Part shown: piece after piece, positions 24,621 to 37,551 of the stretch
Layout of the letters: every line of letters begins with the position of its first letter
How positions within the stretch are numbered: position 1 is the stretch's first letter
Source of the DNA: Candidatus Komeilibacteria bacterium
GTDB lineage: Bacteria > Patescibacteriota > Patescibacteriia > UBA1558
Direction: 5' to 3'
NCBI GenBank assembly: GCA_048538275.1
Contig: JBLYPW010000001.1
Coordinates: 38,244-102,243, forward strand
DNA: 64,000 nt
The notes under the pieces: generated by a model
Told to the model about the DNA's origin: nothing
What the model saw: only the letters and a program-made list of their open reading frames with translations
Database searches by the model: none
Translations under genes and position numbers: made by a program

Positions 24621-25586
24621 TTAACCGCGTGCTAGCAAGAAAATAATATAGCCAAGATAAATAAATACCAGGGCGAAGCCTTGCCAGCGTTCCAATTCTC
24701 TTTTTTTACCAATTGCCAAGAAAACAAACAGTACTACTGATAGACCAATTAAATAAACAATATCAAGCCATAATAAATTGGGTACACGTAATGGTTGTAT
24801 GATACTAGCAATACCGAGAATTAATAAAATATTAAAAATATTAGAGCCGACAATATTGCCAATCGCCATGTCCAAGTTGCGCTTGAAGGCAGCTACTAAA
24901 GAAGTTACTAATTCGGGTAAAGAAGTGCCTATCGCAATAATGGTGGCGGAAATAACAAATTCACTAAGACCAAAAACATGGGCGATAGCTACGGCGCCAT
25001 TGACCACCCACTGGCCACCATAGTAAAGACCAATCAGTCCTATTATTATCATGAGAGCTATTTTGGCATTATTGTGGGTGATATCCGTTTCATCATCTAG
25101 GTGCATACGCCGGTGGCGCACAAAAACTCCGACCGTATAAGCGACGAACAATACAAAGAAAATTAGTAAAATGATACCATCTACTCTATTTATGCTAGAG
25201 TTGAGGACATTATTGAAAAAACTATCGCTGCTGATTAGCAATAAAATCAAAGCCGCCACCATGCTATAAGGTATTTCACGCCAGATAGTAGAGTGCCGCA
25301 CTGACAGGGGATAAACTATGGCGGTAAATCCTAGCACTAAGGCAATATTGGAAATATTACTACCAATCACAGTGCCTAGGCCAATGTCGCTGGAACCACG
25401 CAGGACAGCTAAAATGTTTACGATTAATTCTGGTAAAGAAGTGCCAAAAGAAATAATGGTTAAGCCGATGATGATGTCGGGAATGTGTAATTTTTTTGCC
25501 AAGGAAGAAGCGCCGTCCACTAGCAAATCCGCTCCCTTGATCAGGAAAATAAAGCCGATAATAAATAATATATAAGTAAGAGTCAT
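24621..25586 (-). CDS. Ca2+/cation antiporter (CaCA, YrbG-like)
   Basis: Two alpha-repeat GTSLPEL motifs (GTSLPELIVNILA / GTSLPELVTSLVA) in an ~10-TM protein. Confidence 0.75.
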   Translation of the reverse strand: MTLTYILFIIGFIFLIKGADLLVDGASSLAKKLHIPDIIIGLTIISFGTSLPELIVNILAVLRGSSDIGLGTVIGSNISNIALVLGFTAIVYPLSVRHSTIWREIPYSMVAALILLLISSDSFFNNVLNSSINRVDGIILLIFFVLFVAYTVGVFVRHRRMHLDDETDITHNNAKIALMIIIGLIGLYYGGQWVVNGAVAIAHVFGLSEFVISATIIAIGTSLPELVTSLVAAFKRNLDMAIGNIVGSNIFNILLILGIASIIQPLRVPNLLWLDIVYLIGLSVVLFVFLAIGKKRELERWQGFALVFIYLGYIIFLLARG

Positions 25587-25981
25587 TATTCTGTTTTGAG
25601 CGTGCCAATAAAGAAATTTTTTAGATTTTCGCGAGCACGATCAGAATGTGGCGTGCCTGAGCCCATTGGTCTGGTTTCAAACAACTCGGTAGCATCTTTA
25701 CCGCAGCCTTGTAGAATGGCTTGGCCACCGGGATGGCGCGATATAAAGGAAGTAATCTCATAGACACTGCCCTGAATAGCCAGCCAACAATCCTTAGCCG
25801 TATTATGTTGTGCCACGTCGGTCAGGCTAAATTCTGGCGCTATGGTAGCAGGCGTGGTATTGTTGGTGTTTGATTTGATAGTATTGCTGTTGTTTGAAGT
25901 GGCTGTATTGCCACAGGCGCTAAGTAGTAGCATAATAGCTAGTAAAGCCACCAAGCCCTTTAAATTATTAAAATTTTTCAT
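25586..25981 (-). CDS. lipoprotein with cytochrome b5-like heme/steroid-binding domain
   Basis: Lipobox LLLSACGN. The segment HNTAKDCWLAIQGSVYEITSFISRHPGG fits the cyt-b5 family motif. Confidence 0.55.
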   Translation of the reverse strand: MKNFNNLKGLVALLAIMLLLSACGNTATSNNSNTIKSNTNNTTPATIAPEFSLTDVAQHNTAKDCWLAIQGSVYEITSFISRHPGGQAILQGCGKDATELFETRPMGSGTPHSDRARENLKNFFIGTLKTE

Positions 25982-26263
25982 AAAAATAATAAATAGTTCG
26001 TTAGGTTATATAATTGCCAAATATATATAATTATAACTAATAGTCTTGTTTTAGTATAGTTTTTATCCCATGATAAACAAATATACAGTTTCAATTTAGA
26101 TAAATAGGCTTATTGGCGAAAGACTTGCGTTATGATAAAATAGTATTGTCTCTAGTTTGTTTGTGTTCATTGATAGATTGTCGTAAAACTCCTAGCACTA
26201 GGAGATACTAATAGTTATATGGTTTTTTATTATCTTTTTTTGGCTAGTATCCAAAATAAAAAA

Positions 26264-26272
26264 TGATATAAT
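26264..26272 (+). promoter_or_regulatory. extended -10 promoter element (TGaTATAAT) upstream of the RT operon
   Basis: tgatataat at 26264-26272 in an A/T-rich UP-like context. The predicted TSS is just before the IR-flanked CATGCC-repeat leader. Confidence 0.4.
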
Positions 26273-26280
26273 TTTAATGC

Positions 26281-26361
26281 TTAATAACGCAATCCGTGCC
26301 ACGCCATGACATGCCATACTGCGTATGCCATGCCCTACCATGCCACACATTACGTTATTAA
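26281..26361 (+). ncRNA. candidate structured 5' leader/ncRNA of the RT operon: 13-bp inverted repeats flanking a CATGCC repeat core
   Basis: ttaataacgcaat (26281-26293) is the reverse complement of attacgttattaa (26349-26361) with one mismatch. Between them lies ccgtgccacgccatgacatgccatactgcgtatgccatgccctaccatgccac, carrying four (C)CATGCC repeats. It ends 54 nt before the RT start. Confidence 0.35.
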
Positions 26362-26414
26362 CCATTTCATTCACAATTGGCCGCTAGGCGCAATTGTCTT
26401 ACGACAATTTATCT

Positions 26415-27617
26415 ATGAAAGACCCGATTTATGAAGAGATAGTTTCCACCACAAATTTAGCTGAGGCTTATTTTGAGATAGGTGAGAAATTTATATTGGA
26501 AGGGAAGTCTGGTTATAGCGGTTTGGATGGTTTGCAGATACAAGAATTTGATACTAATTTAGAAAAGAATTTACAAGAAATTCGTGCAGATTTGATAACA
26601 TTGGCACCGCTCATGCCTTTAAATTGCAGCCAAATTCCTAAAAAAAATGGAAAACTGCGAGATATATATATTTTATCTTTGCATGATAGGATCAAATCTC
26701 AGGCAATAATCAGAGTGCTAGAACCATTATTAGAAAAGGTTTATTCACCTTTTCTTTTTTCGTATAGGTCTACGCACCCTACACATCTAGCGGCTCGTTC
26801 AGCAGTGCGCCGTTATCATCGGTATTTTGGGAAAGATTATATTTTATTGACGGATGTTGAGAAATATTTTGATAATATTGATAAAAAAATTATCATTAAT
26901 AAATTAGAGAAATTTGGCTTGCAGTCAGCTACCTTGAGTTTAATTCAATTGTTTCTGGATCAGAAGATTTTAAGGAATAATAAGTTGCTTTCGTTAGATA
27001 GAGGCTTAATGCAAGGCGTTCCTTTGGCGGTGTCATTAGCTAATTTCTATCTCAATGAAATTGATTGGTTAATTGGCAAAAAAGTGTCTTTTTATAGGCG
27101 AGTTAGTGATGATATTTTAATTATGGATAAAAGCGAGCATAAAGTTCTGGAAATTTATGATTTGTTACAGATTGAGTTAGATAAATTGGGTCTAAATATG
27201 CACCCGACAAAAACCAAATTAATGAAAAATAGCGAATTGTTTGAGTATTTAGGGTATTTATTTCATAATAATAAAGTGGCCATCGCTACTCGGAGCCAAG
27301 AAAAGTTAATTGCCAAGTTGGAAGCAGAACTACATTATTATCCCATTGCGCTAGACAAAAAAATTGAACGATTAAGGCAAAAAATATTTACCGGCGCAGA
27401 TTCTATTTCAGCTTACCTGCAAAATACTATTCGTCATTATAGGTTTGTAGATGATTATGATCAGATAAAGGAAGTTTCAGAGAAAATTTATCATATATTA
27501 ACTAGGTATTTTTTTAAAACTTATACGGCGCGTCATCGTCGGCGGACAAAAAATATTTGTCGTGATTTGGGCATGCCATCATTTTATAAGATGTTCGTAA
27601 AATATCATCATGAATAA
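26415..27617 (+). CDS. stand-alone reverse transcriptase (group-II/retron-like RT motifs, no maturase/endonuclease domains)
   Basis: RT motifs read off the translation: IPKKNGKLRDIYILS (motifs 1/2), SYRSTHPTHLA, LLTDVEKYFDNIDKKII (motif 3), RGLMQGVPLAVSLANFYLNEID (motif 4, QGxxxS..LaN type) and FYRRVSDDILIM (motif 5, catalytic xSDD). The track ORF begins at a TTG; the first ATG is at 26415. Confidence 0.75.
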   Translation: MKDPIYEEIVSTTNLAEAYFEIGEKFILEGKSGYSGLDGLQIQEFDTNLEKNLQEIRADLITLAPLMPLNCSQIPKKNGKLRDIYILSLHDRIKSQAIIRVLEPLLEKVYSPFLFSYRSTHPTHLAARSAVRRYHRYFGKDYILLTDVEKYFDNIDKKIIINKLEKFGLQSATLSLIQLFLDQKILRNNKLLSLDRGLMQGVPLAVSLANFYLNEIDWLIGKKVSFYRRVSDDILIMDKSEHKVLEIYDLLQIELDKLGLNMHPTKTKLMKNSELFEYLGYLFHNNKVAIATRSQEKLIAKLEAELHYYPIALDKKIERLRQKIFTGADSISAYLQNTIRHYRFVDDYDQIKEVSEKIYHILTRYFFKTYTARHRRRTKNICRDLGMPSFYKMFVKYHHE

Positions 27618-29310
27618 TTTACATAACATCGTGAACTTATATACTAAAAGACAAAAGCAAAAACAGGACTTTGGTTATTTTGGTTGGCAAAATTATCACC
27701 GGGAGTATTTGTTGGGTTTTTGGAAGGCGCAAAAGCAACAAATTCTTAGAGTCGGGTGGTTAAGTTTGGCGGCTATTGTTATAGAAGTGACAATTTTTTT
27801 TCTGGCCCGGGTGGTCATTAGAAATTTATCATTGCAATTGAGCATTATAAGCCTATGGTATGTGGCGGCGTTTTTGGTAGTGGCGGTGATAATTTATTTA
27901 TTACTTAGTTATTTCAGTATTTTTTATCAAAAGAGACTTTTGGTTGATTTATTAAATGATTTAAGAAAGTTATGGTTTAAGATTGTTTTACGACGACCAA
28001 TATTGGCGTCGGATAGAGAGGAAAAAGATAATGCGATTGCCAAAGTATCTTATCATTTTTCTTTGCTAAGCATGGGTTTTAATAGTGCCTTAGTGGGAAC
28101 GTGGCAAGCTATTTTAATTGTCATGGTGTTGTTATTATTATCCGCTTTTGTTAGCTGGACAATGTTTATATGGAGTATAATAATTATTATTTTTGCTGTA
28201 ATTTTTGCTATCGTCGCTTATAAAATAGCTTTTATTTATGTGAGTAGAGAGCAGACATTTTATACTCAGATTATCAAACATATGTTGAAAGTTTTTTATG
28301 ACTTGGAAAATCATCAGCTACATAACCGCGAGGCAATGGCTTTGCAGAGGTTGAATAAGTTGGTAGAGCTTGATAGTTGGTTTCGGGTGCGTAGAGATAT
28401 TTGGATGAAATTTGGCGCTGATATATTATTTGTTTTGATATTGTTGGGCGGGGCAATTTTGTATATTGTTCAGCTTTATTGGCCACATATTTTTAGGCAG
28501 GAAGCGGCCAGTTTATTTTTATATGGTGTTATAGCAACGTATAGCGTGCGTTTATTTTATCTGAGTTTGCGGGCTGGTCTTTTTTATGTGCCATTGCGTT
28601 TGGGTTTGTGGTTGTCAATACCAGAAAAAAAGCCGGCAAAAATAAGAATTGTAGAAGAAATAAAAAAAATATGTTTTCGTTCGGATAAGTTTAGGTTATT
28701 TGATGAGGATAAATATTTTTGCAATCAGTTTTGTTTTCAACAAGGTCAAAGCTATTTAATCGTTGATAAAAATAGAGACCGTTTGGATGCCTTGGCACGG
28801 ATTTTTGCTGGCATGGCCTTGTCTAGGGCCAAGCCATGGATTTTGTCGGTTAATGGGCAACGTTATTTATATAAGGATTATTTTAAATATCACACACCAA
28901 ATTATTTGATTTCCGCGAACTGGCGATTTCAGGGCACGGTGGGAGATTTTTTATTACCTCAGGCAGAAGATAGTATTTCGCCTAGTGCAGTGACAAAGAT
29001 ATATGAACAATTGGCGCCATATAATGCGTGGCATTTTTTGTTTAAAAAAAACAAGGTCTTGGCTCAAAAAATAGATTTTGTTGCTTCTTCTATTGAGCAA
29101 AGAGCTTTATTACAAATTGCCTACGCCATCATTCACCAAGTGAATTTTGTTATTATTGATAGTAGTTTGGTTGATTTGCAAGGCAAGCAATTTGTAGCGG
29201 CGATACGATTGTTGCGACAGAAAGTAGCCAAATGTATTATTATAATATTATCAACGGCTGATAACGCCATTTTAGATTATGAAGAAAAGTTCTCACTTAA
29301 AGAAAAATAG
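27610..29310 (+). CDS. ABC exporter-like half-transporter (TMD+NBD) with a catalytically degenerate NBD
   Basis: Six N-terminal TM helices, then an NBD-like region that is colinear with ABC domains. Walker A is replaced (LIVDKNRDRLDAL instead of GxSGSGKST). The signature is degenerate (ASSIEQRALLQIAYAI vs LSGGQRQR). Walker B/catalytic Glu is lost (VIIDSSL vs LLDEATS). The start overlaps the RT stop by 8 nt. Confidence 0.55.
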   Translation: MNNLHNIVNLYTKRQKQKQDFGYFGWQNYHREYLLGFWKAQKQQILRVGWLSLAAIVIEVTIFFLARVVIRNLSLQLSIISLWYVAAFLVVAVIIYLLLSYFSIFYQKRLLVDLLNDLRKLWFKIVLRRPILASDREEKDNAIAKVSYHFSLLSMGFNSALVGTWQAILIVMVLLLLSAFVSWTMFIWSIIIIIFAVIFAIVAYKIAFIYVSREQTFYTQIIKHMLKVFYDLENHQLHNREAMALQRLNKLVELDSWFRVRRDIWMKFGADILFVLILLGGAILYIVQLYWPHIFRQEAASLFLYGVIATYSVRLFYLSLRAGLFYVPLRLGLWLSIPEKKPAKIRIVEEIKKICFRSDKFRLFDEDKYFCNQFCFQQGQSYLIVDKNRDRLDALARIFAGMALSRAKPWILSVNGQRYLYKDYFKYHTPNYLISANWRFQGTVGDFLLPQAEDSISPSAVTKIYEQLAPYNAWHFLFKKNKVLAQKIDFVASSIEQRALLQIAYAIIHQVNFVIIDSSLVDLQGKQFVAAIRLLRQKVAKCIIIILSTADNAILDYEEKFSLKEK

Positions 29311-30775
29311 TTTTTTATTGTCTAGGCAAAAGAAAATTCTGGTAAAGAAATTATTTTTTGTAATTATTATTTTAGCCTGCATTATTTATATTTTACATTT
29401 GGTAGGAAATAGGGCATGGCCTTGGTTAAATGATAAAAATTATAATCCATTGATCACTAAGCGCATTAATGCGCCAATAGATTTCAATATTTTTTTCAAT
29501 GATGTGGTGGGAGACGATGTTTTGTCTAGTAGGATTATAGCTGCTATTGATAGCGCCAGATCATCTATCAAAATAGCTATGTTTGCTCTTACCTCGCCAC
29601 AAATAATCAGCGCCCTGGATAGAGCTGATAAACGCGGCGTGATTATAAAATTAGTCTATGACGAAAGCAATCGCAACCGTTATGCTGTGGCGCTGGGTAA
29701 ATTTTTTGATACTGGCATGGCTAGAGGCGCAGGAGTGGATAATCCTAAGCATAATATTGGTTATTATATGCATCATAAGTTCATTATTATTGATGAAGGG
29801 TTTGATGATGAACAATTGATTACGGGCAGTTTGAATTGGACTGATTGGCAACAACAGTATGATCCTAGTTATTTTATTATTACCAGGCGGCCAGAGATTA
29901 TCAATATTTACAATCAAGAGTTTATGCGTCTTTGGCGTGGGCAATCGGGTGTGGCCAAATTGCGAGATAATGATTATCAGCCATGGATTGGCGAGTTTAA
30001 GTATAATAATGCGACATTGGAATTGTGGTGGGGGCCAGGATTCAAAGAAAATTCTTATCGTCAAAGATTATTGGATCTTATCACTGCCGCCACGCAAAGT
30101 ATTGAAGTAGCAATTTGGCAACTGACCGATCGTGATATCGCGCAAGCACTTTTGGTCCAAGCTACGAAAGGGGTTTCGGTAGCCATCGTGACTGATGATT
30201 ATACTTTATGGTCACGAGATAGTGCATTTCCTTATTTGATTAAGCAAAAGGAGCAATTAGGCTTAGATAATTTAATAATAGCAAGTGATAGTTGGCGCTC
30301 AGTTGATCTTGATAATATTTATAAAATAGTTGGCAGGGATTTCTTTAATTCTTATTTTCATCGTCATGGTGCGCTGATAGACAATAAAATTTTAGCGCTT
30401 GGAACAGCTAATTGGTCATATAGAGGGTTCTGGAGTAATGATGAGTCTGGTTTGGTGACGGATGATTTTGATATGATTCAGGCTTGGCAGCAATCGTGGG
30501 ATTATCACTATCATAGTTTACAGGCACAAGAGCTACATTTTTTTAAAAACGAACAAGTTTTAACTTTGGGTGATAAATTTGATCAATTTTATGGAAAAAA
30601 TTTATTAGCAATTTGTGAGCTGAGCGGTGACTCGGTGAAGCCCTTGATCTTGAGTCAGACCATTTTAGCTGATTTAAATCAAAAAATTATGTTGAAGGGA
30701 GATTGTCCAAATGTGGTGCAGGTGTTTATTTATGATGACAATAATAAATTATTGGGTGCTGGTCGAGCCAATTAA
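29279..30775 (+). CDS. membrane-anchored phospholipase D (HKD) superfamily protein, two HKD-like motifs
   Basis: A single N-terminal TM helix. HKD motif 1 is HHKFIIIDEG...GSLNWT. The second motif, HRHGALIDNKILALGTANWS, is degenerate with K replaced by H. The start overlaps the preceding gene by 32 nt. Confidence 0.6.
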   Translation: MKKSSHLKKNSFLLSRQKKILVKKLFFVIIILACIIYILHLVGNRAWPWLNDKNYNPLITKRINAPIDFNIFFNDVVGDDVLSSRIIAAIDSARSSIKIAMFALTSPQIISALDRADKRGVIIKLVYDESNRNRYAVALGKFFDTGMARGAGVDNPKHNIGYYMHHKFIIIDEGFDDEQLITGSLNWTDWQQQYDPSYFIITRRPEIINIYNQEFMRLWRGQSGVAKLRDNDYQPWIGEFKYNNATLELWWGPGFKENSYRQRLLDLITAATQSIEVAIWQLTDRDIAQALLVQATKGVSVAIVTDDYTLWSRDSAFPYLIKQKEQLGLDNLIIASDSWRSVDLDNIYKIVGRDFFNSYFHRHGALIDNKILALGTANWSYRGFWSNDESGLVTDDFDMIQAWQQSWDYHYHSLQAQELHFFKNEQVLTLGDKFDQFYGKNLLAICELSGDSVKPLILSQTILADLNQKIMLKGDCPNVVQVFIYDDNNKLLGAGRAN

Positions 30776-30839
30776 TAATCAAGTTTTTTGCCAAATGTTC
30801 AAAATTGTATATAATGCCCTTGTTTAAGAATAAAATAAT

Positions 30840-31421
30840 ATGAAAAAAGCAAAATTATTATTACATGCCTGTTGCGCGCCGTGTTCCATTTATGTGGTAC
30901 AAAAATTGGCGCAGGATTATAATTTGACTATATATTATTATAATCCCAACATACATCCGGCTGGTGAATATCAAAAACGGTTACAAGAGATTATTCAATG
31001 GTCAAAAAAGGAAGGCATTGCTTTGCAAGAGGCGGATTATCGTCCGCAGGATTGGATTCAGACAATGCAGGGTCATGAATGGGATAAGGAGGGCGGCGAG
31101 CGTTGCGCTATGTGTTATGATTATCGGTTGCGACAGACGGCAGAATTTGCATCTGTTCATAATTTTCCAATATTTTCCACTACCTTAACCATTAGTCCTC
31201 ATAAAAAAGCGTCTGTTATTAATCCGATCGGACAAAAATTGGCCGAAGAATATGGTATAGATTTTTTGGCGGCTGATTGGAAAAAACAAGATGGTTTTAA
31301 AATTGCTTGTCAGCTAAGTCGCGAGGCCGGTTTTTATCGGCAAGATTATTGCGGTTGTATCTATTCTTATCGTGATAGATTATTAAAAGATAAAGCTAAA
31401 TATGAAGCTGCAGGAGTTTGA
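30840..31421 (+). CDS. queH: epoxyqueuosine reductase QueH (DUF208)
   Basis: N-terminal LLLHACCAPCS Cys cluster, a C-terminal CGC motif, and the expected size. Confidence 0.75.
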   Translation: MKKAKLLLHACCAPCSIYVVQKLAQDYNLTIYYYNPNIHPAGEYQKRLQEIIQWSKKEGIALQEADYRPQDWIQTMQGHEWDKEGGERCAMCYDYRLRQTAEFASVHNFPIFSTTLTISPHKKASVINPIGQKLAEEYGIDFLAADWKKQDGFKIACQLSREAGFYRQDYCGCIYSYRDRLLKDKAKYEAAGV

Positions 31422-32430
31422 TTATCATTTACCAGTGGAGCTGATAGCTCAGACGCCGGCGGATAAGCGTGATCATTCACGTTTATTAGTTTATAGTGCT
31501 GGACAGATTGAACATAGAAACTTTTTCAATCTCTCGGATTATTTACAAGCCGGCGACGTTTTAGTATTGAATGATAGCAAAGTATTTCCGGCGCGGCTAC
31601 TGGGTCGGCGGCAAGGTACAGGCGGTAAAGTGGAAATATTTTTATTACAAAACAAGGACCATGGCCAGTGGGAGTGTTTAGTAGGCCATGCCCGTGCTCA
31701 AGTTGGCTTGGTAGTGGATTTTGAATGTGGCTTGCATGCTACTTTACAAGCCAAGTTGGCAGATAGCTGGCTAGTACAATTTAATAAAGAGGCTGAGGAG
31801 TTAATGGAGATTATCAATAAAATTGGTGAAACTCCCTTGCCGCCTTATATTAAGACCATGGACGGTCCGCAGGTGCGCCAGCGCTATCAGACAGTATATG
31901 CTCAGCCAGTCGGCTCAGTAGCCGCGCCGACCGCTGGTTTTCATTTTACGTCAGAATTATTAAATAAATTAAAGAAACAAAACGTACAAATTGAATATGT
32001 AACTTTGCATGTTGGTTTAGGAACTTTTGCGCCGGTAAAAACAGATAGGATTGAAGATCATCAAATGCACTCGGAGTATTATGAAGTAGCTGATGAAACT
32101 TGGCATAGTATACAAAAAGCTAAAAAAGAAAATAGAAGAATTATAGCGGTGGGCACGACCGCTACTAGGGTTTTAGAATCAGTGGCTAGTTCTAATAAAC
32201 TTTCTGGCTGGACAGATATATTTATTTATCCCGGTTATAAATATAAAATAGTGGACTCATTAATAACAAACTTTCATTTACCAAAATCCACCTTATTAAT
32301 GTTAGTATCTGCTTTGTTGGATAATAGGGGGAGTGTTGATGGTATTGTTGAATTAAAAAGAATTTATCAGGAAGCTATAAATAATCATTATAGATTTTAT
32401 AGTTTTGGGGATGCAATGTTGATAATTTGA
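31402..32430 (+). CDS. queA: S-adenosylmethionine:tRNA ribosyltransferase-isomerase
   Basis: MKLQEFDYHLPVELIAQTPA... and the conserved C-terminus ...[11 protein letters not shown]. It overlaps the queH stop by 20 nt. Confidence 0.85.
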   Translation: MKLQEFDYHLPVELIAQTPADKRDHSRLLVYSAGQIEHRNFFNLSDYLQAGDVLVLNDSKVFPARLLGRRQGTGGKVEIFLLQNKDHGQWECLVGHARAQVGLVVDFECGLHATLQAKLADSWLVQFNKEAEELMEIINKIGETPLPPYIKTMDGPQVRQRYQTVYAQPVGSVAAPTAGFHFTSELLNKLKKQNVQIEYVTLHVGLGTFAPVKTDRIEDHQMHSEYYEVADETWHSIQKAKKENRRIIAVGTTATRVLESVASSNKLSGWTDIFIYPGYKYKIVDSLITNFHLPKSTLLMLVSALLDNRGSVDGIVELKRIYQEAINNHYRFYSFGDAMLII

Positions 32431-32455
32431 CTTTTACTCCAAAATATGGTACAAT
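32427..32455 (+). promoter_or_regulatory. sigma70-like promoter for the 642-aa DGR target gene
   Basis: -35 TTGACT (32427-32432), a 17-nt spacer, and -10 TACAAT (32450-32455) preceded by TG (extended -10). It sits 27 nt upstream of the ATG at 32483. Confidence 0.55.
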
Positions 32456-32482
32456 GACATTATTAATAATAACTACAAACAT

Positions 32483-34411
32483 ATGAGCATGGAAAACCCA
32501 GGCTGGCTAAAAAATAAATATAATGATTTACATAGCTCTAAAGAGGTAAAAGCTGCAGTTCGTAGTGAAGAAGCACAAACAGGTGAAAAACTATCTCAAA
32601 ACCCAGAAAAGCAGATTCAAAGCTATTTAGATCGTTTAGAAAAGCTAGTCCTTGATCCAGATAAGAAGCAATCAAGGAAGATGATGGGTAAAGAACAAAG
32701 ACCAAGAGCAGTATCTTTACTACGTGAAATGGTAATGAATGAATATATTCGTCCCAATAAAGAAAAACTAGCAGAAGGAGCAGCCCGTGTAGAAGAAAGA
32801 GCAGCTAGGAATTTAGGAATGGATATTGAATATGGAGAAGAACAATTAGAACAAAGAGGAGAAATAGCTATAGAAGATTTAGAAAAATCACTAGATAATT
32901 GGATTTCTTATCTTTCAGATGCTAATGAACCATATCCAACTTGGTTTAGATATTATGCTTTTAGAAATATATTAAAGCTAGGAGATTATGATAAAGACAA
33001 AAAAGAGTTTACCAAGAGAACTAAAGGTAGTACTAAACTATTCCCCGAAATAGATAGGGGAGCCTTAGCATATATACAGCAAAATATAGAAGCTTCTAAA
33101 GATCCTAAAATACTTGCCAAGCTTCAAGAAGCACAAAAACAAGCAGCTAATGGTGATGTTCCAGAAGATCAGCTTATCACCAAAGAAAAGGTACAAAACT
33201 TTTCTAATCTTTCCTTTGCTAAGCAATATGCAGAAGGAATATCTAAAAATGGTGAAATAACCCCAGAGCTTAGAGCCATAACAGAAGGTAAATGGGTTAA
33301 GTATCAACAAGGTACAGAACCAACAGCTCTTTGGTCATCTCTACAAAACAAAGGCACAGCTTGGTGTACAAAAGGTTTTGCTACAGCCAAAACTCAACTT
33401 GAAGGTGGAGATTTTTATGTATATTACACATTAGATAAAAAAGGCAGTCCTACTATTCCTAGAATAGCTATAAGAATGCAAGGAGAGAATGTAGGAGAAG
33501 CCAGAGGAGTAGAAGACAGTGATCAGAATATGGAAGGTAATATGATAGCTATTGCCGAAGAAAAGCTAAGTACACTTCCAGGAGCTGAAAGCTATAAAGA
33601 AAAAACAGCTGACATGAAAATGCTTACTAGTATATATAACAGACATAAGCAAGGAGAAGAACTTATAAAAGAAGACCTTATCTTTTTATATGAAATAGAT
33701 AAACCTATTCAAGGCTTTGGTTATAAAAAAGATCCGAGAATAGAAGAAATACGAGACAAAAGAGATGTAACCAAAGATGCATCAATTGTATTTGAATGCA
33801 CTCCAGATCAAATAGCTAAAAATATTAATGAAGTAAATGAAAATACAGTAGCATATATAGGGCAATGGAATATACCAGCTTTTCAAGTAATTAAAAACCA
33901 TCCCAATATTATTTACTTTTATGAATCTTTCCCAGATAAAAAGATATTCATGCAAACTCTAGAAACAGATCCTAGTATAGATTCACCTGATACAGCCAAA
34001 CAGTCTCTTAAAGATAAGAACATCTATCTTTCAGATTGGGGAAAGGATATTTTAGAAAAAACAGAGTTTAGTAAAGAAAAACAAGAATATGATTTAGTGA
34101 GATTTACAGTAGAGCAATTAGGATTTCCAAATGGTGCTACTACTGATGAAATATATAATAAAGCTCAAGAGCTCGGACTTGAATTATGTCCAGCTGAAAT
34201 TGGACCTCAATTAAGATTACAAAGTACTAGTAAGGAATGGATGCTTATTGCTATGAAACAGATTATAGACCGTGATGGCGCTCCGAAGCTGTTCGATCTG
34301 AATGATTATGGTGTTCAGCTGGCACTGGTCAGCAACGATGCAGGGTCTGACGACAGGTGGGATTCGGACGGTAGGTTTGTGTTTCATTACCGCCCCAGTA
34401 GCAAAGCGTAG
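32483..34411 (+). CDS. hypothetical 642-aa protein whose C-terminal ~44 aa form a DGR variable region (putative DGR target)
   Basis: ORF with purine-rich composition distinct from its neighbours. The last 132 nt (34261-34392) match a downstream non-coding copy, with mismatches only at positions where that copy has A. Confidence 0.6.
   Translation: MSMENPGWLKNKYNDLHSSKEVKAAVRSEEAQTGEKLSQNPEKQIQSYLDRLEKLVLDPDKKQSRKMMGKEQRPRAVSLLREMVMNEYIRPNKEKLAEGAARVEERAARNLGMDIEYGEEQLEQRGEIAIEDLEKSLDNWISYLSDANEPYPTWFRYYAFRNILKLGDYDKDKKEFTKRTKGSTKLFPEIDRGALAYIQQNIEASKDPKILAKLQEAQKQAANGDVPEDQLITKEKVQNFSNLSFAKQYAEGISKNGEITPELRAITEGKWVKYQQGTEPTALWSSLQNKGTAWCTKGFATAKTQLEGGDFYVYYTLDKKGSPTIPRIAIRMQGENVGEARGVEDSDQNMEGNMIAIAEEKLSTLPGAESYKEKTADMKMLTSIYNRHKQGEELIKEDLIFLYEIDKPIQGFGYKKDPRIEEIRDKRDVTKDASIVFECTPDQIAKNINEVNENTVAYIGQWNIPAFQVIKNHPNIIYFYESFPDKKIFMQTLETDPSIDSPDTAKQSLKDKNIYLSDWGKDILEKTEFSKEKQEYDLVRFTVEQLGFPNGATTDEIYNKAQELGLELCPAEIGPQLRLQSTSKEWMLIAMKQIIDRDGAPKLFDLNDYGVQLALVSNDAGSDDRWDSDGRFVFHYRPSSKA
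34261..34392 (+). repeat. DGR variable repeat (VR) at the 3' end of the 642-aa gene
   Basis: Aligns over 132 nt to 34846-34977. All 18 mismatches are non-A here versus A in the other copy. A GC-rich imperfect hairpin follows (ccccagtagcaaagc / gtagcttgctacgggg). Confidence 0.8.
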
Positions 34412-34496
34412 CTTGCTACGGGGCAAGCAAGTTAGAAACTTAGAAATTTTGCCTGCCTGCCGAAGCTTCGGCGTAGGCAGGATCCTTTGTTTTTTT

Positions 34497-34598
34497 AATT
34501 CTTTGATTTCTTTGATGCTTTGATACTTTGCCTGCCCCGTAGGGAGGAACGACCGTACGGGGACCCTTTGATTTCTTTGACGCTTTGATACTTTGAGT
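34497..34598 (+). repeat. two copies of a ~32-bp unit built from CTTTGAT(T) iterons, each followed by a GC-rich hairpin
   Basis: ctttgatttctttgatgctttgatactttg (34497-34526) and ctttgatttctttgacgctttgatactttg (34566-34595). Adjacent hairpins: cctgcctgccgaagc/gcttcggcgtaggcagg and ccccgtaggg...ccgtacgggg. Confidence 0.5.
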
Positions 34599-34845
34599 CG
34601 CTACATTTTTTTGGTATAATTAATTTAGTTTGGTCTATCAGGTGGTCATGGCTTTCTGAAACCTTTCTAACGAACATAAATCGAGAATGTAAGCGGTTAA
34701 GATTTCTTGCAGAGTGATTTGTGTATCGTTTCCAAAAGAAATTAACTTGGTGTGCATTGCTGGAGGATTTTAGATCCCAAATAAAATACAGTCCATAGTC
34801 TTTTTAATAAATTACTTGGACAGTGATATAGATGGCACTGCACAT

Positions 34846-34977
34846 ATTATAGACCGTAATGGCGATCCGAAACTGTTCAATCTGAATGATAATGGTGATC
34901 AGCTGGAACTGAACAGCAACAATGCAAGGTCTGACAACAGGTGGAATTCGAACAATAGGTTTGTGTTTCATTACCGC
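34846..34977 (+). repeat. DGR template repeat (TR), non-coding
   Basis: A copy of the VR with A at all 18 variable positions (many AAT/AAC codons). No in-frame start codon upstream; a TAG stop lies in frame at 34771-34773. A hairpin ccgtag(ctactatagt)ctacgg follows. Confidence 0.8.
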
Positions 34978-35184
34978 TAGTCATTTCTTTTCCGTAGCTA
35001 CTATAGTCTACGGTTTTTCTTTTCTGGATTTTTTAGACTGTTTTTCCAGCCGCCAAACATTTTGCCAATCTCATTAAATTTTAAGGATATTGTTTCATAT
35101 TGCTTATTAGAAATAATTTTAGCTTCCCAGGATATGTGTATTAAAAATTTAAGAGTATCTAAGATTAAAATGCATTTAGAAATT

Positions 35185-35310
35185 TTATCTGCTTTTTTAG
35201 AAAATAAAGACAGTAATGATGGAATTCTAGAATTAAAAAAAATTTATCAAGAGGCGATTGAACAACAATATAGATTCTATAGCTTTGGTGACGCGATGTT
35301 GATTTTATAG
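35185..35310 (+). pseudogene. duplicated, diverged 3'-terminal fragment of queA (last ~41 codons)
   Basis: Encodes [41 protein letters not shown], matching the queA C-terminus [41 protein letters not shown]. By eye the nucleotide identity is about 78%. There is no upstream queA body. Confidence 0.7.
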
Positions 35311-35428
35311 TAGGAGTTGACACTTTTCATAATATATGGTAGTTTAATATATTAAGAACAACAGTGTTCTTTTATAACCGTAGTCAGTCTTTTGGTAGAC
35401 AGACTGCACAAAAACAAAGGAGTTTGTC

Positions 35429-36097
35429 ATGACAGAAAGAAATGTCACAGACGAGCAATGTTTAAAAATCAGACGACAAACAGACGATCTTGTTCGTCGA
35501 GTTGAGCAAGGAAACCTTCCTTATGATCAAGTAAGAAATTATTTGCAATATTTGATTGAGGGTAAGAGATTAAAGGTTATGAAGTCCTTTTGGATAGAAA
35601 AAGATGGTATCATCCATTTCTCTGTCACTTCAGATGGCACAACTGGTCCTGAACGGATCAAACGCCTTGAAGACAAAGGTTTTTGCATCAGTGATTTTGC
35701 CAAACGGTTATTAAATTCTTCAGAGTTTAAGCCCACCAATGGCATAACTGCTGAAGTTGCTGTTCTCAAAGGTGATCTTTTTTCAGATGGTGACCGCATC
35801 ACTAAAAAGATCAGAGCTTATGCTAAGAAGCAAAAGTTTACCATTCCTAATGCAGAAATCGCTTGTCTTATTCGTGAACAATTCACAGATGAAGATATTA
35901 AGGTAATGGGACTAAGTTGGATTATTGCTATGCACGAACCCATCAAGGATTCTGACGGTGATCCGAGCTTGCTCAGTACGCTTCGTGAAGGCGATGGCCA
36001 TTGGCTGGATGCCTATTGGGATGAGCCTGACGGTAGGTGGAATTATAACTGTGGTTTTGGTTTTGCCTTTGTTCAGTCGCAAGTATCTAGTACTTAG
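35429..36097 (+). CDS. hypothetical protein sharing the C-terminal ~40-aa module of the DGR target
   Basis: The C-terminus DSDGDPSLLSTLREGDGHWLDAYWDEPDGRWNYNCGFGFAF aligns with the VR/TR-encoded DRDGAPKLFDLNDYG...SDDRWDSDGRFVF. The shared pattern is DxDGxP.L..L...G...L......D.RW.....F.F. Confidence 0.45.
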   Translation: MTERNVTDEQCLKIRRQTDDLVRRVEQGNLPYDQVRNYLQYLIEGKRLKVMKSFWIEKDGIIHFSVTSDGTTGPERIKRLEDKGFCISDFAKRLLNSSEFKPTNGITAEVAVLKGDLFSDGDRITKKIRAYAKKQKFTIPNAEIACLIREQFTDEDIKVMGLSWIIAMHEPIKDSDGDPSLLSTLREGDGHWLDAYWDEPDGRWNYNCGFGFAFVQSQVSST

Positions 36098-36177
36098 TGC
36101 TTAGACACTTTGTACTAAAAATAACCCCTTACTTTCAAAGAAAGTGAGGAGTTTTAAAATTGTTAATATATACAAAA

Positions 36178-36215
36178 ACACACCCATGCCAGGTGTGTGT
36201 TTTTGTTTTTCTTTT
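36178..36215 (+). terminator. rho-independent terminator
   Basis: Stem acacacc/ggtgtgt with loop catgcca, followed by ttttgtttttctttttgtttttt. Confidence 0.65.
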
Positions 36216-36399
36216 TGTTTTTTGAATAACTAACGGTTTTTGGCCCTCGTCAGTAGAAGCAAAAAGAAAGCTAGTCCCTTTTTATGGTACAACCCCTAAA
36301 ATTTTGCGAGGAAAGTCCCCGATGCTTGGGTTGTTCCGAGTCAAGCTCGGTTTTTATCACGTGAAACGTGATGATATGCTAAAGAACTTTTATATAAAT

Positions 36400-36783
36400 T
36401 TATTTATCTGTTCCATTCAGAGCCACCGTTCTTTTGTCCATAACTTGTTCTTGACCATCGGTTTGTTTTTCTTCGGTTGGAGTTGGGATTAGATCGTTTA
36501 TTCCTAAATAGCCATTACTGATATTTGCTTGAGTATTATAATAATAGGGATTATCTATGCTATTGGCAGTAGAAGGACTTAGAACAGTATTATAATCATT
36601 ATTGTCAGTTAAAGCAGTTTCTGCTAGGCTAAGCATTTTGGCAGCAGCTATTATTAAAATAAGAGAAAAAAGAAAATTAAAAAACACGCTCTGCAACGAG
36701 TGTGATCGTTTTTTGTGATGATTAGATTGGTTAGTCGGTCTATTGATCCGACTATAAACAGCAGTGTTACTAACAACGCGCAT
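36400..36783 (-). CDS. hypothetical small membrane-anchored protein
   Basis: ORF with a single TM (FFNFLFSLILIIAAAKMLSLA) and an N/Y/T-rich extracytoplasmic tail. Confidence 0.3.
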   Translation of the reverse strand: MRVVSNTAVYSRINRPTNQSNHHKKRSHSLQSVFFNFLFSLILIIAAAKMLSLAETALTDNNDYNTVLSPSTANSIDNPYYYNTQANISNGYLGINDLIPTPTEEKQTDGQEQVMDKRTVALNGTDK

Positions 36784-36865
36784 TTTTTTTGATTTTTTGT
36801 TTTTTATTTTGGGAGATTTTTTTAACCTCTACTAGTAGTTTAGCACACTTTTTTACAAAAGTCAA

Positions 36866-37142
36866 CCCCGTTAGAGGTTTAGAGGGTTTTTTAACCTATT
36901 TTTACTATAATTTTGCTTAGGTTTTGTGTTTAGTGGTTTTTGTTGCCATATATTATATATGGTGTAGGAAAATGTATTTATAGACCCAAACCTCTAACGA
37001 GGCAGACCCCGTTAGAGGTTTAGAGGGTTTTTTAACCTATTTTTACTATAATTTTGCTTAGGTTTTGTGTTTAGTGGTTTATGTTGCCATATATTATATA
37101 TGGTGTAGGAAAATGTATTTATAGACTAAACTTCTCATGAGG
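36866..37142 (+). mobile_element. tandem pair of ~136-bp MITE-like elements with 15-bp terminal inverted repeats
   Basis: Unit A is 36866-37002 and unit B is 37007-37142, separated by 4 bp (caga). The two differ at only a few positions. Each starts with ccccgttagaggttt and ends with aaacctctaacgagg (degenerate to aaacttctcatgagg in B), which is its reverse complement (14/15). Each has an internal TATAAT-like box. Confidence 0.55.
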
Positions 37143-37169
37143 TAGGTTTACCGGGCCGGTGGGGAACGG

Positions 37170-37198
37170 AAAAAAAACCCACCGCTTTCGCCGGTGGG
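37170..37198 (-). terminator. rho-independent terminator (minus strand)
   Basis: Stem cccaccg/cggtggg with a 7-nt loop, followed on the minus strand by T8 (the plus strand shows aaaaaaaa before the stem). Confidence 0.65.
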
Positions 37199-37551
37199 TT
37201 ATATAATAAAGGTTTATAATTGTGGTACTTATGAAAGACTATCCCAAATAAGTTTGGGACTCCAGGGGGTTAGCCTGGAACGCCAGATATGGATCACCTC
37301 CCTCCCTTAATGCTACGCAGCTCAACAGCATTGGCGTAGTTGATTTGGCAATCACGATTGACTGGCATTTCTTCTCCTTTCATTGTTTTGCTAGCGCAGT
37401 TGTGAGCTAGCTCAATTTGACTTTTTCTACTTAGTTGGTGATTATTGCGATAATCACTATCTTTATGAGCCAATAATCCCTCCCTTGTTTGAGTTTAAAG
37501 TACCTATTAATATTATTATAAACTATTCACTTTTTGCCAAGTGGAAAAAAA

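Follow-up and report, generated by a model that had tools for sequence, protein, structure and literature searches.

A 642-aa gene stands immediately downstream of queA in a Candidatus Komeilibacteria genome and is followed by a template repeat and then by a displaced second queA tail, with no DGR-type RT beside it, so that the cassette looked like a DGR working without an enzyme of its own. The question raised by this locus is whether it represents such an enzyme-free system, a mobile element that had entered the 3′ end of queA, or the remains of a DGR of a known kind. The window analyzed here comprises 64 kb (64,000 nt) of a 487-kb contig from a metagenome-assembled genome (MAG); related loci used for comparison carry L numbers.

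Target Gene and Variable Repeat

The target gene, its repeats, and a neighboring ORF with a similar C-terminal domain are:

32483–34411, + strand: DGR target gene, 642 aa (NCBI start 32489, 640 aa, ACKKL5_00390, MFW0837446.1)
34262–34393, + strand: variable repeat (VR), last ~44 codons of the variable domain, 16 mismatches to the template repeat
34846–34977, + strand: template repeat (TR), 43 adenines, 11 AAY codons
35429–36097, + strand: ORF222, C-terminal ~140 aa homologous to the target-protein variable domain, no match to the TR

The VR/TR repeat is 87.5% identical (34258–34393 vs. 34842–34977). Across the 132-nt core (VR 34262–34393, TR 34846–34977), 16 of 16 mismatches fall on TR adenines (P = 1.7e-9 for random positions), and the two repeats show zero non-adenine differences. 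A TR/VR pair with adenine-only differences is a defining property of DGRs, as is the placement of the VR near the 3′ end of the target gene, where the final ~50 codons of the 642-aa ORF contain the variable positions.

The target protein belongs to a large Patescibacteria family (>2600 homologues at 57–80% identity) and has no Pfam, NCBIfam, or PADLOC match; hypervariable columns coincide with VR positions in 50 of 50 aligned homologues. The C-terminal domain is modeled with a pLDDT of 88.8, and a Foldseek search against PDB and BFVD returned no match at E < 0.1, the weak matches being C-type lectin-like (TM 0.3–0.45); in having no significant match to the C-type lectin fold, this variable domain may differ from that of the Bordetella phage BPP-1 DGR. 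With the TR as query, no further VR was found in the window. ORF222 matches the C-terminal domain of many target-family members (25% identity to the window variable domain by BLASTP, E = 4e-5), and was considered as a second VR of the window TR, but was rejected because its 38-nt similarity (36027–36064, 71%) includes non-adenine differences.

Template RNA Gene

Three features accompany the TR and delimit its transcript:

34593–34620, + strand: promoter-like site for the TR transcript (TTGAGT-16-TATAAT, TG before)
34669–34845, + strand: structured RNA leader of five helices, directly 5′ of the TR
34992–35024, + strand: terminator-like hairpin (stem 34992–34997/35008–35013) and T-run (35014–35024), closing the TR transcript

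The promoter-like site, located by promoter scan, is kept in three related loci (L003, L001, and L002). In the leader, helix 3 pairs 34750–34761 with 34834–34845, and the end of this helix is the first base of the TR. Across 18 loci, 35 of the 49 leader pairs show compensatory changes, and 95.2% of cells are paired, vs. 33–48% when the partners are slid. The leader matches no Rfam family at threshold, the only echo being RT-7 (23 bits vs. a cut-off of 116.8), and the 12 related loci searched at the Rfam gathering threshold yielded nothing but tRNAs. This strongly covarying structured RNA immediately 5′ of the TR in the Patescibacteria DGR family is a by-product of the analysis that may be more useful than the main finding. 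The terminator-like hairpin is kept in 16 loci, with stem covariation (CCGTAG/CTACGG, CCGCG/CGCGG, and CCGCA/TGCGG) read by eye from an unscored alignment; read on the other strand, the T-run corresponds to the C-terminal codons of avd (EKKNR). All parts of the TR RNA gene, from promoter through leader and TR to terminator, are intact in the window, as is the target gene.

Homologous spacer, leader, TR, and terminator hairpin across 16–18 loci place the cassette in a Patescibacteria DGR family with the order target, TR, opposite-strand avd, and RT. The Patescibacteria (CPR) DGRs have been described as “DGR clade 2” (Roux et al., 2021; PMC8144416) and the “CPR set” (Wu et al., 2018; PMC5758913); homology between the window and complete DGRs on Patescibacteria contigs covers target family, VR position, spacer, leader, TR, and avd, and the adenine-specific mutation pattern is common to both. 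The likeness to the BPP-1 DGR consists in the TR/VR logic, the VR at the 3′ end of the target, a four-helix-bundle Avd, and, in intact relatives, a dedicated RT. The Patescibacteria family differs from BPP-1 in having avd downstream of the TR on the opposite strand, and in having a conserved structured RNA upstream of the TR and a terminator-like hairpin after it, whereas the key noncoding segment (Sp) of BPP-1 is downstream of the TR (PMC6182149).

Loss of the RT and of the avd Start

To the right of the TR, two further features were recognized:

35001–35189, − strand: avd remnant, last 62 codons and stop codon; ~45 N-terminal codons gone, no start codon
35186–35189, no strand assigned: recombination junction, 4 nt (TATC) common to the end of the avd homology and the start of the queA homology in three-way alignments

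According to the original prediction, neither an RT nor avd adjoins the TR, and nothing coding follows it before the queA fragment. The absence of an RT is upheld: a profile built from 120 Patescibacteria DGR RTs, applied to the six-frame translation, found neither a DGR-type RT nor a remnant of one in the 64-kb window, and no DGR-clade RT is encoded with the TR. The remainder proved mistaken, since the C-terminal 62 codons of avd follow the TR on the opposite strand and extend up to the queA fragment. By tblastn, the remnant is 65.5% identical to the Avd of L003 (E = 1e-24) and aligns to residues 43–107 of its 107; the Avd family profile matches it at E = 1.3e-35 (positions 41–105 of 106) and Pfam bAvd at E = 7.6e-9 (positions 57–106 of 107). 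Its frame is open, with in-frame stop codons upstream of the remnant; with only these profile positions covered and the start codon absent, an intact Avd is not encoded here. A weak match to the Avd profile in another frame (35168–35326, E = 0.58) was set aside as noise, since the DNA there is the queA fragment.

Intact relatives share the order target/VR, promoter, structured leader (~180 nt), TR, terminator-like hairpin, avd on the opposite strand, and DGR RT (~300–340 aa). Because avd and RT directly follow the TR in three fully read loci (L003, L089/L090, and L092/L093) and in ~17 of 46 metagenome loci, their absence from the window is read as truncation, not as a design feature. Compared with the CPR DGRs, the window retains everything up to mid-avd, the first ~45 avd codons and the entire RT being gone. 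Other copies of the family have decayed as well: one keeps its TR and part of avd but lacks an RT (L117), one is a 47-nt TR remnant beside an IS200-like fragment (L105), and one is a C-terminal RT remnant alone (L118). The cassette is best read as a decayed copy of a system already known and not as a novel enzyme-free mode of operation, and offers a clear case of DGR decay, in which one illegitimate junction would have removed the RT and half of avd while sparing the target and the template RNA gene. In the Bordetella prototype, cDNA synthesis requires bRT, Avd, and the DGR RNA, and these three suffice for it (PMC6182149); given this need for both RT and Avd, the cassette would by analogy be unable to diversify its VR alone. 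RT-anchored surveys miss such cassettes, and repeat-anchored ones could take them for trans-acting systems.

The RT Upstream of queA

The only RT in the window (26394–27617; profile match 26388–27614) is group-II-like and lies 7 kb upstream. As the sole RT in the window, with both catalytic aspartates kept in its active-site motif (VSDD, not YADD), it might be thought to diversify the VR, but it scores 77.7 bits on the Patescibacteria DGR RT profile, vs. 508–697 bits for members, and is 28.7% identical to the L003 DGR RT. It matches instead the group II intron RT/maturase model TIGR04416 (E = 5e-49, positions 14–351 of 353; 167 bits, not reaching the cut-off of 300) and solved group II RTs (3e-25). 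Relative to the syntenic Komeilibacteria locus L009, it sits in an insertion that is separate from the cassette and also encodes a 566-aa membrane protein and a PLD-family protein; furthermore, every intact DGR of the family has its own DGR-type RT (with the motif LGNLTSQ in that of L003), and this RT would have no intact Avd as partner. We therefore regard diversification of the VR by this enzyme as extremely improbable, use of an atypical RT for this purpose being unlikely, and the earlier view that the nearby RT is not a DGR RT holds.

In the alignment of its RT and thumb/maturase regions to TIGR04416, the window RT resembles free-standing group II intron-like RTs; it differs from them in its score below the model cut-off, in the VSDD motif, in a retron-like inverted repeat upstream, and in that no group II intron RNA domains were found at E ≤ 1 in 25500–37500. 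A 45-nt repeat (73%) flanks the RT insertion (26014–26058/30788–30832) and is too weak to interpret.

Two queA Tails and the Avd–queA Junction

The cassette lies between two copies of a repeat that includes the end of queA:

31402–32430, + strand: complete queA, 342 aa (Pfam Queuosine_synth, E = 3e-128), last ~41 codons part of repeat copy 1
32306–32491, + strand: repeat copy 1, with queA tail, stop codon, promoter-like site, ribosome-binding region, and target-gene start
35186–35431, + strand: repeat copy 2, with the displaced tail of a second queA allele (last 41 codons, stop 35308–35310), promoter-like stretch, and ribosome-binding region

The displaced tail is a true queA fragment, as had been claimed: 35186–35303 is 77% identical to 32306–32423, its translation matches Pfam Queuosine_synth (E = 1.2e-8, profile positions 295–322 of 322), and it has 73% identity over 113 nt (E = 3e-14) to queA from a related genome. 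The repeat itself is likewise real, although its extent had been drawn too short; it runs past both stop codons, the promoter-like site (in copy 1 at 32427–32455, TTGACT-17-TACAAT with TG before, by promoter scan), and the ribosome-binding region, to about 32491 and 35431, respectively. Both tails carry Komeilibacteria-type sequence, and the complete window queA has 67% aa identity to that of L009. Over the 41 codons, the tails have 75% nt identity, a dN/dS of 0.11, and changes at 66% of synonymous sites; this low ratio with near-saturated synonymous change indicates that they diverged as working genes in separate lineages, and that copy 2 is not a local duplicate.

In L009, queA leads directly to the homologue of a 127-aa gene: ~4 nt after queA begins a block that aligns to window 36166–36285, so that synteny resumes at 36166. 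This empty site indicates that the cassette next to queA is an insertion. An intact gene, an insertion, and a displaced tail, together with an empty site in a relative, recall genomic islands and prophages that restore the 3′ end of a gene, and the original prediction had a small mobile element integrating site-specifically into the queA 3′ end, bringing a replacement end and displacing the original. Divergence of the tails under purifying selection is what such an event would produce if one tail came from another genome. The borders argue otherwise. Homology to the DGRs of L089, L003, and L092 stops at 35177–35204, and queA homology begins at 35186, so that the right border interrupts the reading frame of avd, which is itself part of the inserted DNA, at a 4-nt microhomology; it appears to be an illegitimate junction and not an attachment site. 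Between 32431 and 36165, the ORFs comprise the target gene, the avd remnant, the queA tail, and ORF222, with no integrase or recombinase among them. The two repeat copies agree without interruption over 10 nt at most, and the site has no identical core with borders outside the genes of an element. A DGR adjoins queA in 0 of 46 metagenome loci with the target family and in 0 of 80 queA loci; the neighbors of the DGR in other genomes are housekeeping genes, and the gene tables there reveal no borders of an element. Site-specific integration could be reconciled with the right border if a later deletion had by chance extended exactly to the attachment site; on the evidence as a whole we consider integration into queA quite improbable, and the claim that an element supplied a replacement gene end is not sustained.

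Since the sequence comes from a MAG, and the two queA tails resemble allelic sequences from a single locus, the avd–queA junction might also be an assembly chimera of two strains, one with queA and the DGR and the other with queA and ORF222. The 4 nt common at the junction are far too short for a k-mer or overlap-based mis-join, and the contig is 487 kb long, which makes a chimera very improbable.

We consider it probable that what remains here is the left portion of a DGR of the Patescibacteria type, which lost its RT and the start of avd through recombination with a second queA gene end. At the break, 4 nt of microhomology join avd to the region of codon ~302 in another, diverged queA allele of Komeilibacteria type, with which come a downstream promoter of its own and ORF222. 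Two versions of the locus downstream of queA, one with the DGR and the other with ORF222, may have recombined. The likely route would combine a homologous crossover at one flank with an illegitimate join at the opposite one, as in the homology-facilitated illegitimate recombination of naturally competent bacteria, in which homology anchors one end and a few bases of microhomology serve to join the other (PMC3240628); that process would give a junction of the type seen here, a parallel drawn from the sequence pattern only. ORF222, too, is within the DNA missing from L009, a point against this reading. In a DGR truncated by recombination, the adenine-only VR/TR differences would have been written by the lost enzyme pair or a closely related one. 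The zero non-adenine differences between VR and TR, together with the open avd frame, suggest either that the loss was recent or that the cassette is still maintained. At present the cassette would be either frozen or served in trans, and we lean toward the former.

A Second Target and Possible Diversification in Trans

A second copy of the target (P0121; ACKKL5_01910, MFW0837733.1) is encoded on the same 487-kb contig; it is identical to the window protein over residues 76–596 and the tail, and differs at 11 VR codons. Such near-identity with a different VR points to recent DGR activity in this genome, after the two copies had become identical, and is compatible with a working RT elsewhere. 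Counted by hand, 14 of 15 differences between the P0121 VR and the window TR are explainable by adenine mutagenesis; P0121 has Tyr at one codon for which the window TR reads GAT.

It is possible, although we judge it unlikely, that the cassette is a working satellite whose RNA and VR are served in trans by an RT–Avd pair at the second target locus or on an unbinned contig, phage, or plasmid. The RNA gene from promoter to terminator is intact, the VR/TR differences lie at adenines while the other bases have not drifted, and the second target fits the same mutagenesis; moreover, target-family members standing alone, with no TR within 10 kb, keep VR-type hypervariable columns, and targets >100 kb from the RT are known in other DGRs (Wu et al., 2018; PMC5758913). 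The searches for the enzymes speak against it. No intact Avd of this family was found among the named proteins of the MAG. With the avd remnant as query, 79 Avd clusters were obtained (best 86% identical), none from the 487-kb contig or with an ACKKL5 name, the NCBI-sourced clusters having no names that tie them to the MAG; and the best 120 of >8000 DGR RT matches, all 64–75% identical, include none from the MAG. The CPR DGRs surveyed in 2018 have as a rule a single target, and the remote targets of that survey were confined to another lineage (PMC5758913).

More doubtful still is the broader proposition that the orphan TR remains in use, with an RT–Avd pair from elsewhere in the cell or community rewriting both the adjacent VR and the second target ~300 genes away; if true, such a “satellite TR” arrangement would be invisible to surveys that start from the RT gene. 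The remote-target DGRs of Treponema denticola and Legionella, which can act in trans on a VR gene far from the RT (Wu et al., 2018; PMC5758913), are comparable in that the window genome likewise has two targets with different VRs. In those systems, however, the TR stays beside the RT, whereas the window TR itself is without an RT, and none was located. The genome also departs from CPR DGRs, reported as mostly single-target (PMC5758913), in its second near-identical target far off on the same contig. Two near-identical targets with different VRs in one small genome provide a direct test case for trans action in a CPR bacterium, a second by-product that may outweigh the main finding in usefulness.

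VR/TR Pair and Target Protein

Two repeats (34258-34393 and 34842-34977) share 87.5% identity, and across their 132-nt core (34262-34393 and 34846-34977) all 16 mismatches (16/16) fall at adenines of the downstream copy, which has 43 of them (P = 1.7e-9 for random positions), with zero differences at other bases. The downstream copy is therefore the template repeat (TR) of a diversity-generating retroelement (DGR) and the upstream copy the variable repeat (VR), in agreement with the original prediction. The gene that carries the VR is as follows:

32483-34411, target ORF of 642 aa, VR at its 3' end

The target protein falls in a very large family of Patescibacteria (>2600 matches at 57-80% identity); the protein matching it at 100% is encoded on a 487-kb contig of a Candidatus Komeilibacteria MAG. 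No Pfam domain was found in the target protein. The hypervariable columns of the family coincide with the VR positions in 50/50 aligned homologues. No structural match of the AlphaFold models (pLDDT 77 for the full length and 88.8 for the C-terminal 173 residues) was significant, the best, all weak, being to C-type lectin-like domains.

Truncated avd Gene and Related Loci

The claim that nothing coding follows the TR is contradicted by an avd remnant. An Avd query from the related locus L003 matched the window minus strand at 35195-35022 (tblastn; 65.5% identity, E = 1e-24), and a profile from 79 Avd proteins of the Patescibacteria DGR family recovered the same minus-strand frame (E = 1.3e-35). 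Coverage is confined to family profile positions 41-105 of 106 (Pfam bAvd: 57-106 of 107), and the avd-derived open frame comprises 62 codons ending at the stop codon 35001-35003; 5' of these 62 codons there are stop codons and no start codon. Judged by this coverage and frame, only the C-terminal 58% of the avd gene is kept, on the opposite strand directly 3' of the TR.

Three independent, fully read loci (L003, L089/L090, and L092/L093) have a common order: target with VR, a spacer of 330-480 nt, TR, avd on the opposite strand, and a reverse transcriptase (RT) of 291-343 aa on the target strand, which in L003 contains the DGR-type motif LGNLTSQ. In their VR/TR pairs (129-136 nt), the adenine-directed mismatches number 19/~23, 21/21, and 23/23. 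The target-TR-avd-RT order also occurs in ~17 of the 46 metagenome loci retrieved with the window target protein. The window follows the intact layout base for base as far as mid-avd, and homology to L089, L003, and L092 stops at 35177-35204. By homology, the cassette is a truncated member of this known Patescibacteria DGR family. A DGR designed to work without an adjacent RT was rejected on that ground.

Decay seems common in the family: one locus (L117, 3213-3635) has a TR and partial avd with RT absent within 4.5 kb, another (L105, 2506-3071) has a 47-nt TR remnant adjoining an IS200-like transposase fragment, and a third (L118, 6424-6642) has an RT tail alone (last ~70 codons). Many target-family members are solitary, with TR absent within 10 kb. 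Two members of the family (L005 and L007, 10001-11917) are located between topA and dprA. Within 10 kb of them there is no TR, avd, or RT, yet their variation falls in the VR columns that vary in DGR-linked copies; they could be remote or former targets.

Probable Recent DGR Activity in the Genome

Because RT, Avd, and DGR RNA are together necessary and sufficient for cDNA synthesis in the DGR prototype (PMC6182149), the cassette would, by analogy, be unable to act alone. A second target (ACKKL5_01910) belongs to the same protein cluster and lies on the same contig as the window target (ACKKL5_00390), ~300 genes apart. Over the first 75 residues the two differ at 10 positions; from residue 76 up to the VR they match exactly, and only they among the homologues end in the C-terminal tail HYRPSSKA. 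Their VRs differ at 11 codons, and in a codon-by-codon comparison 14/15 differences between the second VR and the window TR could have arisen through adenine changes. The pattern suggests recent gene conversion, then independent retrohoming; the lack of non-adenine VR/TR differences, together with a second target bearing another VR, points to recent activity in the genome. An RT-Avd pair located elsewhere could still serve the cassette in trans, but none of the 79 Avd clusters found with the avd remnant (best 86% identical) belonged to the 487-kb contig or carried this MAG's name, and we regard such service as rather unlikely. We lean toward a recently disabled DGR, the TR of which once served both targets.

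Predicted TR RNA Module

The TR seems to be transcribed as a separate RNA of ~400 nt, since a terminator-like hairpin follows it and two predicted elements precede it:

34593-34620, promoter-like site, TTGAGT-16-TATAAT with TG before it
34669-34845, structured leader of five helices, immediately 5' of the TR

The promoter-like site is kept in relatives. In an alignment of 18 loci (the window and 17 others), the leader fold has 49 pairs, 35 with compensatory changes; pairing holds in 95.2% of cells vs. 33-48% with partners slid by 1-3 columns, values matched by 0/500 shuffles. Leader helix 3 pairs 34750-34761 with 34834-34845, and its end marks the first TR base. Directly after the TR, a conserved CCGAAAGT is followed by the hairpin (34992-34997 / 35008-35013), the stem of which has apparent covariation between loci (read by eye off the alignment), and by a T-run. 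The opposite strand of this T-run forms conserved avd C-terminal codons (EKKNR), and thus one DNA stretch (34992-35024) would serve both strands. The predicted promoter-leader-TR-terminator module is complete in the window.

No Rfam family matched the leader at threshold; the sole echo was of one hairpin to RT-7 (23 bits vs. a cut-off of 116.8 bits), one of the RT-associated motifs proposed by Weinberg et al. as possibly serving DGRs (PMC5737381). The layout differs from the Bordetella prototype, because the decisive noncoding segment there is downstream of the TR (PMC6182149), whereas the structured leader of the Patescibacteria family is 5' of the TR.

The VR-TR spacer contains two G+C-rich hairpins (34448-34483 and 34531-34566) that are absent in L003, L001, and L002; the latter hairpin lies between the copies of a 30-nt direct repeat (34501-34530 / 34566-34595, 97% identical). 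In other loci, hairpins unrelated to these are inserted in the spacer or in the leader helix 2 loop.

Second queA Tail and Proposed Origin

The predicted duplication of the queA tail was confirmed: 35186-35303 is 77% identical to 32306-32423, its translation matches Pfam Queuosine_synth (E = 1.2e-8, profile positions 295-322 of 322), and it also matches queA of a related genome. The Komeilibacteria locus L009 (JBLYPX010000001.1) is syntenic with the window through ruvB, cation antiporter, cytochrome b5, queH, and queA, and after queA through a small minus-strand gene, ychF, and onward. Two window blocks are extra relative to L009:

25982-30839, block 1: RT, 566-aa protein, PLD-family protein
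32431-36165, block 2: target, TR, avd remnant, queA tail, ORF222

The absence of block 2 from L009 therefore upholds the proposed insertion next to queA. Synteny restarts at 36166 (79.5% identity). The noncoding block there (36166-36285 vs. L009 11030-11152) is, at 79.5% identity, conserved above its flanking genes and contains a bidirectional terminator-like hairpin (36178-36198); it had no Rfam match.

Integration of an element at the queA end, as originally proposed, is not supported. Homology to avd runs up to ...GAAATTTTATC and homology to queA starts from TATCTGCTTT, so that in the assembled sequence the junction lies inside avd, and the bases common to both are TATC only (35186-35189). 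Exact matches between the two repeat copies reach 10 nt at most, and block 2 contains no recombinase. Judged from its sequence, the DGR part does not end on the right in an attachment site. A classical integrative element was rejected, given the border inside avd and the lack of a recombinase in the block.

Over 41 codons, the queA tails differ at 25% of bases, with dN/dS 0.11 and 66% of synonymous sites changed, and both contain Komeilibacteria-specific tail sequence. Their similarity extends beyond the stop codons, via a promoter-like TTGAC...TGGTA element, as far as the start codons of the genes that follow. In our reading, two alleles of one locus (queA then DGR, and queA then ORF222) would have been joined by recombination, illegitimate on the avd/queA side, a joining that we liken to homology-facilitated illegitimate recombination (PMC3240628). 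Neither parental arrangement was found (0 among 80 queA loci and 0 among 46 target loci).

ORF222 (35429-36097) is a short paralogue of the variable C-terminal domain of the target (25% identity, E = 4e-5), without a matching TR, and is preceded by a separate copy of the queA-tail promoter.

Reverse Transcriptase of Block 1

The RT at 26394-27617, placed in block 1 apart from the DGR block, aligns to the group II intron RT/maturase model along almost its entire length (E = 5e-49, below the family cut-off) and also matches solved group II RTs (3e-25); no intron RNA was detected for it. Its identity to the L003 DGR RT is 28.7%, and it scores 77.7 bits on the family DGR RT profile vs. 508-697 bits for members, consistent with the earlier view that the nearby RT is not DGR-type. 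It is considered unrelated to the DGR.

The 4.9-kb block 1 may represent a defence-type RT system. Its RT has the active-site motif VSDD instead of YADD and is overlapped by a 566-aa multi-pass protein with no family match; the block also encodes a two-domain PLD-family protein with DrmC-like matches. Directly upstream of the RT, a 24-nt inverted repeat (26166-26189 / 26396-26419, 88% complementary), the second arm of which overlaps the RT start, encloses a long imperfect hairpin (26276-26366, 44-nt arms), a layout that recalls a retron msr/msd region (fold z-score -3.1).
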